In this document: positions 3,143 to 32,366 of the stretch, one piece after another | Numbering within the stretch: the first letter of the stretch is position 1 | Layout: each line of letters opens with the position of its first letter | NCBI GenBank assembly: GCA_036625875.1 | Contig: JAZKSW010000002.1 | Coordinates: 1 to 33,725 of the forward strand | Length of the DNA: 33,725 nt | Direction of reading: 5' to 3' | DNA from: Minisyncoccota bacterium | Lineage (GTDB): Bacteria; Patescibacteriota; Minisyncoccia; Minisyncoccales; JAZKSW01 | The notes under the pieces: generated by a model | Seen by the model: the letters and a program-made list of their open reading frames with translations, nothing else | Told to the model about the DNA's origin: nothing | Databases searched by the model: none | Program-made: the position numbers and the translations under genes

Positions 3143-3201
3143 ATTTGAAATAACTTCTGCGCCTTTACTAAAGAAAAGGTGCAGGGTAAAATGAAAACAG
3201 T

Positions 3202-4875: not shown

Positions 4876-6240
4876 ATGGACATTTATTCTAAAAAAACCA
4901 AAGATGAATTGAAAGTTACATTAGAAGACAGAGTATTTACTGTTACTGAGTTTATCAATTTTGTAAATGCTTTGTTTGAACCTTTGAAATCTCGTCGGGT
5001 TTCGATAAAAGGTGAAATAGGAGAAGATATTAATCTTTATCCCCGGTATGGTTTTTTTAAATTGATCGATGAAAATGATTCAGTTTTACAATGCTTTGCC
5101 TACAAAAGAGTGATCAATGAAATGGAGATTGATTTTGAGCCAGGTATGGAAGTAAAGATTAGTGGTTATCCGGAATTAAGAAAGAAAAAAGGTAGTTTTA
5201 ATTTTCAAGTAAAAAGAATTGTACCGACCGGCGAAGGAGAATTAAAAAAGCAATTTGAACTGTTAAAAAAGAAATTAAAAGAAAAAGGTTTTTTTGATAA
5301 AGAGAAGAAGCAAGAAATTCCTCCTTTTGCGGAAAAGATCGGCTTAATCACATCGAAAGGAAGCGATGCAGAAGAAGACTTTCGAACACATCTTAAGAAA
5401 TATGGTTTCACTATTTATTCCTACAATAGTAAAGTGGAGGGTGATTCGGCCATACAAGATATTGTTTCGGGGATTCAATTATTAAATAGTAAATTCCCCG
5501 ATTTAGACTTGATAGTTATCACTAGAGGTGGAGGAAGTTGGGAGTCATTACAAGCTTTTAATAGCAAGGAAGTTGTCAAAAGTGCCTTTTCCTCAAATAA
5601 GCCTATTATTTCCGGAGTTGGTCATGAGAACGATGTAACTCTTTTGGATTTAGTTGCGGATATGAGGGTTTCTACGCCTACCGATGCTGGTAAATATCTT
5701 TCTGAAAACTGGGAACAAGGTGCACAGTTTATTGAGCAATCAGAGAGGAATTTAAATATGACCATAGCAAATATAATAGAAAGAGTTAAGCAGCAATTTG
5801 CAGAAATGAAAAGATTCTTTGAAAGAGAAATTAAAAATGAAATTGGTAAACTTGAACAATCCTTAGAACATGATTTAAAGTTTTTAACTAATCAACTTAA
5901 AAGCAAAATAGAAAAGTTTTATTCTTTAGAAGAAAGTTTTCGTGCGAATGGATATAAGTTGAAAGTTAATTTTAAAGAAAACAAAGAAAAGGTCGAAACA
6001 TTAACTCAGCAATTAAATCAAAATAAAGAACACTGGGAAGAAACACTTTTTAAACAGCTTTCACAGGAACGAGAAAAATTAAGAATTTCTAGTCCAAAGT
6101 TTAAATTACGTCAAGGATACTCAATTACTAAAAAGCAAGGAGAGGTAGTGAAAAAATCTTCTGATCTGAAGCAAGGGGACAAAATCAAGACAAAGCTTTC
6201 CAAAGGAAGTGTGAAATCCCAAGTGGAAAATAATGAGTGA
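4876..6240 (+). CDS. xseA: Exodeoxyribonuclease VII large subunit
   Basis: N-terminal OB fold; IGLITS, RGGGS, SGVGHENDVTLLDLVAD.R.STPT, GYSI. Confidence 0.95.
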   Translation: MDIYSKKTKDELKVTLEDRVFTVTEFINFVNALFEPLKSRRVSIKGEIGEDINLYPRYGFFKLIDENDSVLQCFAYKRVINEMEIDFEPGMEVKISGYPELRKKKGSFNFQVKRIVPTGEGELKKQFELLKKKLKEKGFFDKEKKQEIPPFAEKIGLITSKGSDAEEDFRTHLKKYGFTIYSYNSKVEGDSAIQDIVSGIQLLNSKFPDLDLIVITRGGGSWESLQAFNSKEVVKSAFSSNKPIISGVGHENDVTLLDLVADMRVSTPTDAGKYLSENWEQGAQFIEQSERNLNMTIANIIERVKQQFAEMKRFFEREIKNEIGKLEQSLEHDLKFLTNQLKSKIEKFYSLEESFRANGYKLKVNFKENKEKVETLTQQLNQNKEHWEETLFKQLSQEREKLRISSPKFKLRQGYSITKKQGEVVKKSSDLKQGDKIKTKLSKGSVKSQVENNE

Positions 6241-6448
6241 CGAAAAATTTGATTTTTCCGAAGCATATCAAGAAATAAAAGAAATAAATAAGTGGTTTGA
6301 GAAGGAAGAGATAGATTTAGAGGAGGCCTTGGACAAATATGAAAAAGGAATGAAGCTTATAAAAAAATGTAAGGATAGACTTGAAGAATCCGAAAATAAG
6401 TTCAAGGAAATTAAGGAAGAATATTCCGAAGAAGTAAAGGAGGATTGA
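6233..6448 (+). CDS. xseB: Exodeoxyribonuclease VII small subunit
   Basis: F.EA...I.EI...LEEAL..YE.G..L.K.C...L pattern; overlaps the xseA stop. Confidence 0.93.
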   Translation: MSDEKFDFSEAYQEIKEINKWFEKEEIDLEEALDKYEKGMKLIKKCKDRLEESENKFKEIKEEYSEEVKED

Positions 6449-6472
6449 CTATTTATAAAAGGGAGTTTCCAC

Positions 6473-6500
6473 TTGACAGTTTCTCTCTTTTTTCTACAAT
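6473..6500 (+). promoter_or_regulatory. Sigma70-type promoter of the leader-peptide unit
   Basis: TTGACA (6473-6478), 16 bp spacer, TACAAT (6495-6500). Confidence 0.7.
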
Positions 6501-6509
6501 GTAACCACA

Positions 6510-6581
6510 ATGAGTTATCTCTCAGTTATTAATTTAATTCTATTTATTATTTACCCCGCGAACGGCTGGGAGGTAGCTTAA
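6510..6581 (+). CDS. Putative attenuator leader peptide MSYLSVINLILFIIYPANGWEVA
   Basis: 23-codon ORF starting 9 nt after the -10; Ile/Leu/Val-rich middle; 3' end overlaps the antiterminator arm. Confidence 0.55.
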   Translation: MSYLSVINLILFIIYPANGWEVA

Positions 6582-6636
6582 TTTTGGTACAACTAAATAG
6601 ATTCAAGTCAAACCTCCCAGCTCGGGAGGAATTTTT
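6565..6636 (+). promoter_or_regulatory. Transcription attenuator (mutually exclusive antiterminator and terminator)
   Basis: GCTGGGAGGT (6565-6574) is the perfect complement of ACCTCCCAGC (6612-6621); alternative hairpin CCTCCC-AGCTC-GGGAGG (6613-6629) followed by AATTTTT. Confidence 0.65.
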
Positions 6637-6669
6637 AATTGTTCGTTTAAATCTTATAGGAGGTGTTTT

Positions 6670-6801
6670 TTGTTGGATGGTGAAAGAGTTTCGACGAAGT
6701 TTGATGAGAAGAGACAAACCCAAGTAGAAGTTCCACTTTCTCTTGTATGGCAGCCTGAGCCGGACTTTTATCCGAGAGATAACAACAATGAATTATCTTA
6801 G
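6670..6801 (+). CDS. Hypothetical 43-aa micro-protein (not in ORF track)
   Basis: SD AGGAGGT at 6658-6664, TTG start, (M)LDGERVSTKFDEKRQTQVEVPLSLVWQPEPDFYPRDNNNELS, TAG directly before the next SD. Confidence 0.5.
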   Translation: MLDGERVSTKFDEKRQTQVEVPLSLVWQPEPDFYPRDNNNELS

Positions 6802-6814
6802 AAGGAGGTATTTG

Positions 6815-7066
6815 ATGGATAGTTTATACGATGAAGGTGGTACTAACCTAACAGTGCAAGAGCTATGCAGGCAAACTTCCAACGAAGAAGTTAGACAGGA
6901 TATTGAAAGAATTGTAAATTTTCTCTGTGATCAAAGAGAAATGTATGAAGAAGAAGTTAAAAAGAAAAAGGTAAGGGAGTTACTTACATTGGATGAGTTA
7001 CCTTCTGAGCATAAGGAGACTCTAAAAGGGTTTGATCTTGCTCTTAATAGGCAAAAAAGTTGCTGA
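6815..7066 (+). CDS. Hypothetical 83-aa acidic helical protein
   Basis: SD AAGGAGGT (6802-6809) precedes ATG 6815, preferred over the track start 6743; followed by a terminator. Confidence 0.65.
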   Translation: MDSLYDEGGTNLTVQELCRQTSNEEVRQDIERIVNFLCDQREMYEEEVKKKKVRELLTLDELPSEHKETLKGFDLALNRQKSC

Positions 7067-7075
7067 CATTCAAAG

Positions 7076-7110
7076 GGGCAGGGGAAGCAATTCCCTTGCC
7101 CACCTTTTTT
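7076..7110 (+). terminator. Intrinsic terminator
   Basis: GGGCAGGGGAA-GCAA-TTCCCTTGCCC followed by ACC and T6. Confidence 0.8.
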
Positions 7111-7133
7111 ATTTTGCTACAATAAAAACAGAC

Positions 7134-7682
7134 ATGAAAAACGGACTGAAAATCATAATTTTATTACTCGTTATCACTGCTATAACTACTTTTACTTGGA
7201 TTCTTCTTCAAAGGTCGGAACAAGTTTCTAACAAAACAGGTGATATGAAAATAACAAGTCCTGCTTTTGAACCTAACCAACCAATACCTGATAAATATAC
7301 TTGTACCGGGGAAGATATTAATCCGCCTCTGAAGTTTGAAGAAATTCCTCAAAAAGCTGAATCTTTAGTATTAATTGTAGATGATCCCGATGCACCTTCC
7401 GGCACTTGGTTGCATTGGACTGTTTGGAATATTAATCCCAATGTAGGTGAGATTAAAGAAAATACTATCCCCTCTAGTGCGGTAGAAGGCATGACTGATT
7501 TTGGGGAACCGGGTTATGGTGGTCCTTGCCCTCCTTCCGGAGAACACCGCTACCGATTTAAAGTCTTTGCTTTGAGTAGAAAGCTAAATTTAAAGGAAGG
7601 AGCTGAACAAGAAGAATTAGAAAGAGCATTGGAGGATTACATAATAGAGAAGGATCAATTGGTAGGGGTTTACAGTAAATAA
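7134..7682 (+). CDS. YbhB/YbcL (PEBP family) protein with N-terminal membrane anchor
   Basis: MKITSPAF, YTC.G.D.NPPL, DDPDAP.GTW.HW, GYGGPCPP.G.HRY.F; ATG 7134 follows an extended -10 TGCTACAAT. Confidence 0.92.
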   Translation: MKNGLKIIILLLVITAITTFTWILLQRSEQVSNKTGDMKITSPAFEPNQPIPDKYTCTGEDINPPLKFEEIPQKAESLVLIVDDPDAPSGTWLHWTVWNINPNVGEIKENTIPSSAVEGMTDFGEPGYGGPCPPSGEHRYRFKVFALSRKLNLKEGAEQEELERALEDYIIEKDQLVGVYSK

Positions 7683-7704
7683 GGAAATAAATACAAACCA
7701 GATT

Positions 7705-7728
7705 ACCGTCTGTAATGGGGCGGTTTTT
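7705..7728 (+). terminator. Probable intrinsic terminator
   Basis: ACCGTCT-GTAATG-GGGCGGT stem (with G-U pairs) followed by a T run. Confidence 0.55.
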
Positions 7729-7734
7729 GTTGTC

Positions 7735-7763
7735 TTGACAAAATTAATATAAATTAGTATTAT
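7735..7763 (+). promoter_or_regulatory. Sigma70-type promoter of rlpA
   Basis: TTGACA, 17 bp spacer, TATTAT. Confidence 0.7.
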
Positions 7764-7823
7764 TTAAATACGGGGTAGAAAGGAGCTACCACAGATCTTT
7801 ATACAACCGAATAGGAGGTTAAA

Positions 7824-8321
7824 ATGAAAAAGCTTATTGTGGTAGTTGCTTTGTTGGTCTTCTTCTCTAGTAACGCTATAGGTTCTGTTGGAGTTACTGT
7901 ACGTTCCGGTGCAACACTTTGGAGTATTGCTCAGGATTTCAACATGTCCGTTTCGGAATTAATGGGAATTAATGATTTAGAGGATGCTACAATTTATCCG
8001 GGGCAAGAATTGAAGGTTAAGCCCTATGTTAACTCTTATGCTGTAGTTAGCTGGTATGGCTCAAAGTTTCACGGTCGGTCAATGGCCAATGGAGAAGAGT
8101 TTGATATGCATGACCCGAAGATAGTGGCTCATAAGTGGTTACCTTTTGGCACAAAAGTTAAACTTACTCGTGTAGATACCAATCATAGCATTAAGGTCAT
8201 AGTGAAAGACCGTGGTCCTTACGTAGAAGGTCGTAATTTTGATCTAAGTCGAGCTGCCGCAGAAAAACTAAATATGAAAAGTAAAGGTGTTATTGAATGT
8301 AAAGTTGAAATTATCTCATAA
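7824..8321 (+). CDS. rlpA: LysM-domain RlpA-family lytic transglycosylase with signal peptide
   Basis: LysM (V.SG.TLWSIA...IYPGQ.L.V) plus DPBB (SWYG..FHG...ANGE.F, AH..LPFGT, DRGPY..GR..DLS..AA); SD TAGGAGG. Confidence 0.9.
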   Translation: MKKLIVVVALLVFFSSNAIGSVGVTVRSGATLWSIAQDFNMSVSELMGINDLEDATIYPGQELKVKPYVNSYAVVSWYGSKFHGRSMANGEEFDMHDPKIVAHKWLPFGTKVKLTRVDTNHSIKVIVKDRGPYVEGRNFDLSRAAAEKLNMKSKGVIECKVEIIS

Positions 8322-8328
8322 GTACGAT

Positions 8329-8358
8329 CTCCCGTCGGCTTTGCCGACGGGAGTTTTT
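8329..8358 (+). terminator. Intrinsic terminator
   Basis: Perfect 11-bp stem CTCCCGTCGGC-TTT-GCCGACGGGAG followed by T5. Confidence 0.88.
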
Positions 8359-8399
8359 ATTTGATTTAACGGGGTAAGTTTAGTAAAATAATAGTGTCC

Positions 8400-8768
8400 A
8401 TGAACGATAAAAAATTTAAAGAATTAATCCAAGAAGGACTTGAAGAGTTACCTTCTAAGATCAGAGACAAGATGGAGAACGTAGCTTTAGTGGTAGAGGA
8501 TAAACCTTCTTCTGAGCAGAGGAGTAATTTTGGCAATAAGAAACTTTTTGGTCTCTATCAAGGTACTCCTCAGTCAAAGAGAAACTCAGCTTACGGAAAG
8601 GGCGCCTTACCGGATAAAATCACTATTTTTAAAGAGATAATTGAAGATAAATTTGATGAAGAGGAAGACATCAAAGATAAGGTTAAGCAGGTAGTTTGGC
8701 ACGAGGTGGCTCATCATTTTGGTTTTGATGAGTCTGAAGTGCGGAAGTTAGAAAAACAAAGGTTTTAA
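8400..8768 (+). CDS. Minimal zincin-like metallopeptidase (DUF1025 type)
   Basis: LFGLYQG.P, PDKITIF, HEVAHHFG; start ATG 8400 or GTG 8394. Confidence 0.88.
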   Translation: MNDKKFKELIQEGLEELPSKIRDKMENVALVVEDKPSSEQRSNFGNKKLFGLYQGTPQSKRNSAYGKGALPDKITIFKEIIEDKFDEEEDIKDKVKQVVWHEVAHHFGFDESEVRKLEKQRF

Positions 8769-14345: not shown

Positions 14346-14418
14346 GGCCTGGTGCCCGAGTAGCTTAGGGAGCGGTTTGCAAAACCGTTTTACAGGGGTG
14401 CAAATCCCCTCCAGGCCT
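14346..14418 (+). tRNA. tRNA-Cys(GCA), CCA not encoded
   Basis: Acceptor GGCCTGG/CCAGGCC, discriminator U, anticodon arm GCGGT-TTGCAAA-ACCGT, T arm AGGGG-TGCAAAT-CCCCT. Confidence 0.93.
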
Positions 14419-14419
14419 C

Positions 14420-31968: not shown

Positions 31969-32366
31969 TGGTGGAGGTGGTGGGATTGAACCCACGTCCA
32001 GAAAGCAAGTCAAGATACCTCTACAAGCTTAGCTCAGTTAATGAAGAACGAGAAGTGTAAACTGAGCAAAACCTTCTCGCCGTTTGCCTATTACATTTCG
32101 ACAACTTGCCTAGGCTAGAGTAAGTTGTCTACCCTGAGCTATGATACTCACTCTTGTTTATCAGGGATCGACAAGAGGAGCAGCTGCTAACGAGTAGCAG
32201 CGAACCTGCGACAATTGTCACGGAGTGACCCGTAACTTTTAGGCGTAAGCCATAGCAGGTTCAGAAGAGAATAAGTTTGCACTTATTATTCCTCTAAGTT
32301 TTTTGAGTTTAGAGGATACTCAGCTTGCGCATCTTAACAAGACATCCTGTCGAGTCACTCACCCCC
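31969..32366 (-). ncRNA. ssrA: tmRNA; tag peptide ANLFSSEPAMAYA (32280-32239)
   Basis: 5' GGGGGTG...TCGAC pairs with 3' CACCTCC-A-CCA including G3-U; T arm GTGGG/CCCAC; resume context ATAAGT-GCA; adjacent to smpB. Confidence 0.95.

Follow-up and report, generated by a model that had tools for sequence, protein, structure and literature searches.

A stretch of 33,725 nucleotides (nt) from a Minisyncoccota bacterium (contig JAZKSW010000002.1, positions 1 to 33,725; hereafter the window) was analyzed, and the region between xseB and a gene of the PEBP family was found to carry what is probably a ribosome-operated, three-hairpin transcription attenuator acting on a leaderless or near-leaderless transcript. 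Attenuators of this type are already known; the lineage, the leaderless start and the small-protein targets are the unusual part. An earlier note on this DNA had described a ribosome-dependent attenuator at this locus, and its promoter, its 23-codon open reading frame (ORF), its complementary arms, its terminators and its two ORFs led by a Shine-Dalgarno (SD) sequence were all recovered at the same positions. The list of elements was thus correct as far as it went, but it overlooked region 1 (6511-6527) and the absence of an SD before the leader ATG. The attenuator geometry itself held, and was strengthened both by the anti-antiterminator helix missing from that description and by about 17 leaders with the same core in other families. 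The window is contig C24 of a genome assembly of 637,508 bases in 78 contigs, 85.8% complete and with 38% GC; the nearest comparison genomes belong to the same order as this one, each to a different family. The features of the locus are summarized in Table 1.

Table 1. Positions of the leader elements, the downstream ORFs and the flanking genes in the window
Feature	Position	Strand	Description
xseA	4876-6240		Upstream of the leader locus
xseB	6233-6448		Exonuc_VII_S, E = 1.4e-13; directly upstream of the locus
Sigma-70-type promoter	6473-6500	+	TTGACA 6473-6478, 16-nt spacer, TACAAT 6495-6500; 11/12 matches
Leader ORF	6510-6581	+	23 codons and TAA, MSYLSVINLILFIIYPANGWEVA; leaderless or near-leaderless
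Region 1, anti-antiterminator arm	6511-6527	+	Pairs with 6564-6580; includes the UG of the start codon
Accessory CCCG	6555-6558	+	Adds to region 2 (joint span 6555-6580)
Region 2	6564-6580	+	Last five codons (19-23) and stop codon; pairs with region 1 or region 3
Region 3	6612-6622	+	Joint span with region 4, 6612-6629
Region 4	6624-6629	+	
Terminator tail	6630-6641	+	AATTTTTAATTG; AA, then TTTTT at 6632-6636
43-amino-acid (43-aa) ORF and SD	6658-6801	+	SD AGGAGGT 6658-6664; TTG 6670 to TAG 6801
83-aa ORF and SD	6802-7066	+	SD AAGGAGGT 6802-6809; ATG 6815 to TGA 7066
Operon-end intrinsic terminator	7076-7110	+	11-base-pair (bp) stem 7076-7101, then T run
PEBP-family gene	7134-7682		E = 2.2e-39; downstream of the locus

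The leader RNA can adopt two mutually exclusive folds. In the fold of the nascent transcript, regions 1 and 2 form a helix (1:2) of 17 contiguous pairs, six of them G.U, with an energy of -19.7 kcal/mol, and a helix as long was seen in none of 500 shuffles of the first 33 nt of the ORF. Alternatively, region 2 pairs with region 3: GCTGGGAGGT at 6565-6574 and the stretch 6612-6621 are perfect reverse complements, and the complete antiterminator (helix 2:3) consists of 11 bp between 6564-6574 and 6612-6622 and four additional pairs between 6555-6558 and 6623-6626 (-24.9 kcal/mol). Regions 3 and 4 form the terminator hairpin (helix 3:4), CCTCCC-AGCTC-GGGAGG at 6613-6629 (-11.3 kcal/mol), from which an attenuated 3' end is predicted at about 6636-6640. 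State A, with helices 1:2 and 3:4, has an energy of -32.5 kcal/mol, and state B, with helix 2:3, one of -34.1 kcal/mol. When folds of the growing transcript were computed, helix 1:2 was the minimum free energy (MFE) structure from 6576 to 6616, and the barrier from 1:2 to 2:3 along the direct path was 17.8 kcal/mol.

Folding of the leader, which the earlier note had suggested, gave structures more stable than expected by chance. The MFE of 6505-6645 was -35.8 kcal/mol (z = -3.2; equalled by one of 200 shuffles), and the best fold with no pair in common with the MFE structure reached -31.1 kcal/mol, as against -18.1 +/- 2.4 kcal/mol in shuffled sequences (z = -5.45), a value attained by 0/500 shuffles. 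When the upstream part alone was shuffled, the energy of helix 1:2 was reached 13 times in 1000 and that of helix 2:3 once in 1000. Region 1 (ATCTCTCAGTT) differs from region 3 (ACCTCCCAGCT) by three C-to-T changes only, all of which keep the pairing with region 2 as G.U, as would be expected of a deliberately weaker competitor. Among the 159 terminator-like hairpins of the genome, six have an upstream competitor of at least 9 bp, and the one described here is the only one in a leader context (1/159); the other five lie in coding- or tRNA-like sequence, judged by eye, and were rejected. A scan of the same genome for other attenuators, defined as a -10 box followed by an ATG, a short ORF and a terminator, gave five matches, with a TTGACA -35 box at this locus only, and no second copy of the locus was found in the genome.

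These observations bear on whether the locus regulates anything at all. The hairpin at 6613-6629 might just end the xseA-xseB transcript, or a short RNA from the promoter at 6473, with the pairings arising as by-products of a GC-rich word that occurs three times in AT-rich DNA. No terminator was found between the xseB stop codon (6448) and the leader, so helix 3:4 probably ends xseAB transcripts too, and the only promoter-like site listed in 6500-7096 is a 9/12 site at 6892-6920, so that the 43-aa ORF has no other promoter-like site before it. We nevertheless consider an absence of regulation very unlikely. It does not account for the two exclusive folds lying so close in energy, for an alternative fold unmatched in the shuffles, for the pair-preserving differences between regions 1 and 3 or for a competitor so rarely found in a leader context, and the three-part layout recurs in other families with compensatory changes, as described below. 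In addition, the two SD-led downstream ORFs lack a promoter of their own and therefore need read-through.

The promoter upstream of the leader is among the two best promoter-like sites in 5500-8500, and the transcript probably starts a few bases 5' of AUG 6510. The leader ATG is found 9 nt after the -10 box. Of the 738 long ORFs of the genome, 18 (24.4 per 1000) have a TAnAAT box 9 nt ahead of their first start codon, compared with 0.5 per 1000 at internal starts; 9 nt is the peak box-to-start spacing for SD-less first starts, counts are also raised at spacings of 8, 10 and 11 nt, and the TAnAAT-preceded starts listed show no SD. Judging from this sequence pattern, mRNAs with no leader or a very short one appear to be common in this organism, and the leader ATG, at exactly 9 nt from its box, fits that habit. 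Examples in the window of a TAnAAT box 8-11 nt before an ATG without an SD are found at 3201, 26544 and 7134; the last is the start of the PEBP gene, where the spacing is 10 nt. The leader ORF begins at the foot of region 1 and reaches its stop codon where region 2 ends. Shuffling the upstream 130 nt yields a comparable ORF in 7% of cases. The leader ORF is presumed to be translated. A 47-aa ORF at 6584-6727, behind an SD-like GGGAGGT, was rejected, having a non-coding codon score (1.06 bits, 3rd percentile of real genes).

The proposed mechanism is as follows. The promoter at 6473-6500 would start an RNA with its first codon, AUG 6510, near the 5' end. In the growing RNA, region 1 would pair with region 2, and with region 2 occupied, region 3 would pair with region 4, the hairpin and the U run halting transcription at about 6636-6640. 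A ribosome reaching the stop codon (6579-6581) would cover region 2 and lead to the same termination, so that both no translation and full translation would end in a terminated transcript. A ribosome stalled within approximately codons 5-15 (SVINLILFIIY, comprising four AUU Ile codons as well as Leu, Phe, Asn and Tyr) would cover region 1 and free region 2, which could then pair with region 3; the terminator would not form, and transcription would read through into the 43-aa and 83-aa genes up to the terminator at 7076-7101. A ribosome covers about 30 nt of mRNA, and one with its A site on any of codons 7-14 would sit in the loop of helix 1:2, where these codons lie; under this assumed footprint, the codon layout should let a stalled ribosome free region 2 and a terminating ribosome mask it. 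The signal would most likely be a shortage of charged tRNA-Ile, possibly of charged tRNA-Leu too, and in a cell unable to make amino acids it would report the external or host supply. The ribosome footprints, the termination at helix 3:4, the sensed amino acid and the role of the two proteins are what we infer in this scheme.

Leaders of a like build were found across the order. When 401 genomes of the order were searched for the core pattern GGGAGG-N25-55-CCTCCC-N3-8-GGGAGG, matches were obtained in 24 genomes, compared with two for the reversed pattern used as a control; the window locus matches once. Nineteen foreign loci were inspected, and 17 of them carry an ATG ORF, 18-45 codons long, that runs over the first GGGAGG and ends 0-50 nt after the first G of the first GGGAGG, where 4.2 were expected from dinucleotide shuffles and 0/200,000 simulations reached 17. 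A TAnnnT box is present 4-11 nt before the leader ATG in 11 of the 19 and a T-rich tail, judged by reading the tails, in 15. Helix 2:3 extends past the fixed core by a mean of 6.0 extra pairs, versus 2.83 +/- 0.45 with the 3' flanks permuted among loci (maximum 5.0 in 2000 permutations), and several pair types occur at each extension position, the first outer pair being TA in 6, CG in 5, GC in 2 and GT in 1 of 16 loci. The window locus has five pairs beyond the core, an ORF whose stop lies 11 nt past the motif's first G, and the tail AATTTTT. The GGGAGG motif is read in all three frames among the ORFs of these loci, which places the constraint there on the RNA. Thus, the like-built leaders (L025-L028, L032 and L034-L042) share with the window locus the GGGAGG/CCTCCC/GGGAGG-T-run core and an SD-less short ORF over the first GGGAGG, and the sequences outside the core do not align among them. 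L026 and L028, from another family, use a local GCCUCUC hairpin in place of a region 1 at the start codon; they have in common with the window locus a CUCUC-type region 1 and the GGCTGGGAGG...CCTCCCAGC extension into the terminator loop, with nothing else alignable.

Several of the like-built leaders encode clear Ile or Phe runs, which the leader of the window lacks: MSNFIAKNIIIISIIIELHKRGGFSYIK in L037 (a run of the IIIISIII type), NIIFFIIILL in L034, NFFFF in L035 and L039, FFFFF in L032 and FFGFFF in L042. The genes downstream are unrelated. Of those following 10 of the loci, eight encode proteins without a Pfam family, and the other two a Methyltransf_33 protein and a weak GT2 match. The best reading is that the window locus represents one instance of a scaffold that is used repeatedly in the order. 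More tentatively, it may belong to a lineage-wide set of attenuators in an ultra-small, host-dependent order, in which one GGGAGG/CCUCCC/GGGAGG-U-run scaffold with a leaderless mini-ORF, its codons swapped between Ile, Leu and Phe, would read the amino-acid supply via ribosomes and switch on lineage-specific genes; here, a scarcity of Ile/Leu would turn on two small acidic proteins with a possible action on translation, dormancy or the host.

The scaffold with an SD-less mini-ORF was observed at L023-L042, in genomes G020, G131, G159, G162, G165, G174, G191, G192, G197, G230, G265, G282, G304, G326, G347, G390 and G398 as well as others. The leaders L041 and L042 (G390 and G191; genus label g146) share their ends, ME... 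and ...TEL(S/N)SGGF.F, and differ in the middle, with LFLIIMLIV in one and QFFGFFF in the other, as if the sensed residue had been exchanged on a common scaffold. Proteins of ~370 aa are encoded at L035:1604-2710, L039:338-1453 and L041:2069-3073, the L041 copy leaving the locus end at 335 aa; by eye, all begin with M(K/E)LVL and resemble one another in the N-terminal region, and no Pfam family matched the two scanned. The Phe-run leader lies 44-47 nt upstream of this gene in L035 and L039, and the LFLIIMLIV leader 495 nt upstream in L041. In L023 and L031 (G159 and G174) a start codon follows 6-7 nt after the second GGGAGG, and the protein downstream of L031 looks GreA-like by eye. Two of the pattern matches, L024 and L029, are GC-rich repeats and not leaders. 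The 59 pattern matches in G225 (for example C1:2465-2513 and C11:1013-1085) likewise fall in GC-rich repeats, GGGAGGGGGAGGA...CCTCCCCCTCCC, a separate repeat family.

Several observations weigh against the attenuator as proposed, or against its use as an isoleucine sensor. The leader ATG has no SD, the transcript start is placed by position relative to the promoter alone, and the codon score of the leader ORF is ambiguous (3.75 bits, at the 21st percentile of real fragments and in the top 7% of open off-frame fragments). The 3:4 terminator is modest, with a 6-bp stem, an AA spacer and only five U, and as state B is favored over state A by 1.6 kcal/mol, termination by default depends on folding kinetics. 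The like-built loci were chosen by the pattern, and a single family supplies 10 of the 23 foreign genomes; pattern selection and the high degree of kinship mean that the counts overstate independence. Only 5 of 14 leaders, that of the window included, have a significantly long region 1 at the start codon, and a codon periodicity at lag 3 is absent from the 14 leaders (pooled 0.394 versus 0.36-0.42 at other lags; 0.33 in the leader of the window). A single-sequence covariance model of the leader gave only chance matches in 150 genomes (seven weak foreign ones, E 0.018-0.98), of which the best, the one inspected, was rejected as lying inside a coding region. Finally, nothing known connects the target genes with amino acids.

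The amino-acid content of the leader peptide is likewise not decisive. It holds four Ile (all ATT, the commonest Ile codon), three Leu and two Val, with no run longer than two. Neither the Ile excess (4/23, P = 0.067 versus the proteome, with Ile at 6.8%) nor the excess of Ile, Leu and Val together (9/23, P = 0.068) is significant, and the value for codons 5-15 (4/11 Ile, P = 0.005) comes from an interval picked post hoc. Furthermore, the spacer has to be unstructured and AU-rich, so that I, L, F, N and Y codons result from composition alone. The Ile or branched-chain specificity claimed in the earlier note is thus not established; sensing of isoleucine/leucine by the leader is plausible but unproven.

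The other searches for relatives of this leader were also negative. A DNA search of 40 relatives returned only chance matches of 24-43 nt, and neither P0001 nor its alignment gave a locus in genome_contigs, metagenome_contigs or viral_contigs. A protein search of 400 genomes of the order gave five weak matches (E 8e-4 to 0.01), four in long open frames and one with internal stops, which were taken as chance, and a protein search of 400 genomes of the class gave no match.

The same ribosome-operated switch could instead serve as a general sensor of translation stress, responding to any stall on the leader, to ribosome-targeting antibiotics or to a low initiation capacity on leaderless mRNA. It would then resemble the bmrCD and vmlR leaders of B. 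subtilis, which are leader-peptide attenuators before resistance genes. The lack of a homopolymeric codon run, the non-significant Ile enrichment and targets that are not amino-acid genes are all in line with such a sensor. Moreover, helix 1:2 closes over the start codon, so that the output also depends on the speed of ribosome loading, a point that is made for hairpin H1 of the C. glutamicum ilvBNC attenuator as well (PMC11857589). General stress sensing is regarded as unlikely since the single-residue runs of the like-built leaders (7 Ile of 8 in L037; 4-5 Phe in L032, L035 and L039) indicate an amino-acid readout as the usual use of this leader class, and four AUU occur among the 11 codons of the stall-permissive stretch.

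A further possibility is that the RNA switch is real and the ORF incidental, the switch being set by an RNA-binding protein, a small RNA, NTP (nucleoside triphosphate)-sensitive pausing at U-rich tracts, or temperature. The missing SD, the ambiguous codon score and the absent period-3 signal are compatible with this, as is the fact that GGGAGG and CCUCCC, which are SD-like and anti-SD-like, are conserved as RNA in all three frames. Control without a ribosome would leave unexplained why ORFs cover region 2 in 17/19 foreign loci where 4.2 are expected, why the start and stop codons in the window bracket helix 1:2 exactly and why the ATG stands at the leaderless spacing of the genome. In addition, no Rfam family was matched at the gathering score by the window locus or by 13 of the like-built loci, and no candidate binding protein adjoins the locus. 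An incidental ORF is consequently judged distinctly unlikely. We give hardly any credence to the notion that the locus exists to make the hydrophobic peptide of 23 residues, acting as a small membrane or type I toxin-like peptide, with hairpins that serve the stability of its mRNA. The peptide does have a hydrophobic core, LSVINLILFIIY, and a mildly positive codon score, but the hydrophobic stretch, at ~12 residues, is on the short side for spanning a membrane, no minus-strand promoter-like site was found within 6400-6700, and the like-built leaders keep the layout and not the peptide sequence.

The two ORFs that the attenuator would control differ in how well they are supported as genes. The 83-aa ORF is a real gene, with a gene-like codon score of 26.2 bits, and its product belongs to a very small family of acidic helical proteins. 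Four relatives were identified, P0004 (82% identity) and P0005, P0006 and P0008 (41-43%), all on contigs of at most 2.8 kb and with conservative substitutions among them; a fifth candidate, P0007 (333 aa, with repeats), was dropped as a likely spurious low-complexity match. The protein has 19 D/E versus 13 K/R and its structure model is helical, with a predicted local distance difference test (pLDDT) score of 78.7. It gave no Pfam, PHROG or NCBIfam match above threshold and no usable feature match in Atlas, and the structure search that the earlier note had proposed returned no fold match (nothing at E <= 0.001 in Foldseek against PDB; best Z of 4.5 in a wide VIA-align search). The 43-aa ORF, behind a strong SD, putatively encodes a small acidic protein; its gene-like codon score of 11.5 bits corresponds to the 31st percentile of real-gene fragments and the top 2.2% of open off-frame fragments, no relative but itself was found among 5.8 billion proteins, and it has no Pfam, PHROG or NCBIfam match. 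The description of both as orphans in the earlier note therefore applies to the 43-aa ORF and not to the 83-aa protein. Its further suggestions, that the locus is a dormancy or stress module or that it is a relic, are not established.

The organism had also been called a probable auxotroph. This agrees with the 0.64-Mb genome, in which ilvD was not found (the assembly being 85.8% complete), but a class IV aminotransferase is present at G000:C31:2984-3628 (Aminotran_4, E = 6e-51), which could be a branched-chain or D-amino-acid aminotransferase. Elsewhere in the window are a tmRNA gene at 31969-32366 on the minus strand (107 bits; tag peptide ANLFSSEPAMAYA) and a tRNA-Cys(GCA) gene at 14346-14419 on the plus strand. 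These two RNAs were the only Rfam matches at the gathering score in the window, and there were none in 13 like-built loci.

Gene regulation in bacteria resembling the candidate phyla radiation (CPR) is almost undescribed. If the attenuator proposed here is real, a genome of this size harbors a classical ribosome-sensed switch that acts on leaderless transcripts and controls genes unrelated to amino-acid synthesis, and one RNA scaffold is reused before many uncharacterized genes of the order. It would then offer a handle for guessing when such genes are expressed, namely under amino-acid shortage, and for annotating tiny sensor ORFs overlooked by gene callers.

The closest RNA family in Rfam, searched at E <= 10, was RF01859 (Phe_leader), which matched 6517-6639 with 33.2 bits and E = 0.0015; as the gathering score is 55, the locus is not a member of this family. 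In the literature on CPR, Patescibacteria and Saccharibacteria, full-text searches gave no paper that could be recognized from its title and the first lines of its abstract as describing leader-peptide attenuation in these lineages. The enterobacterial leaders trpL, leuL, ilvL/ivbL, pheL and pheM have an SD and a 5' untranslated region and control biosynthetic or aminoacyl-tRNA synthetase genes. The window locus follows the same 1:2 / 2:3 / 3:4 logic, with putative regulatory codons placed where a stall would free region 2 and with a U-run terminator, whereas its stop codon lies inside region 2 and not between regions 1 and 2. The mycobacterial polycysteine attenuators are leaderless short ORFs in which the ribosome, when it stalls at sensor codons, remodels an RNA duplex (10.1101/834739). 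They resemble the mechanism proposed for the window locus in having a leaderless short ORF as the first cistron and in switching on downstream genes by a stall on sensor codons, but they act on translation by unmasking a ribosome-binding site, use runs of Cys codons and control genes of cysteine metabolism, where the window locus has an intrinsic terminator and no run. A like build is seen in the ilvBNC attenuator of C. glutamicum, for which a three-hairpin model with a leaderless IlvL leader is given and H1 blocks the start (PMC11857589). Both have a leaderless leader ORF, a first hairpin over the start region as anti-antiterminator (H1), an antiterminator (H2), a terminator (H3) and a peptide rich in branched-chain residues. 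The C. glutamicum system differs in having ilv enzymes as its targets, whereas the locus described here, known from its sequence, precedes two small proteins in an ultra-small, CPR-like bacterium in which ilvD was not found.

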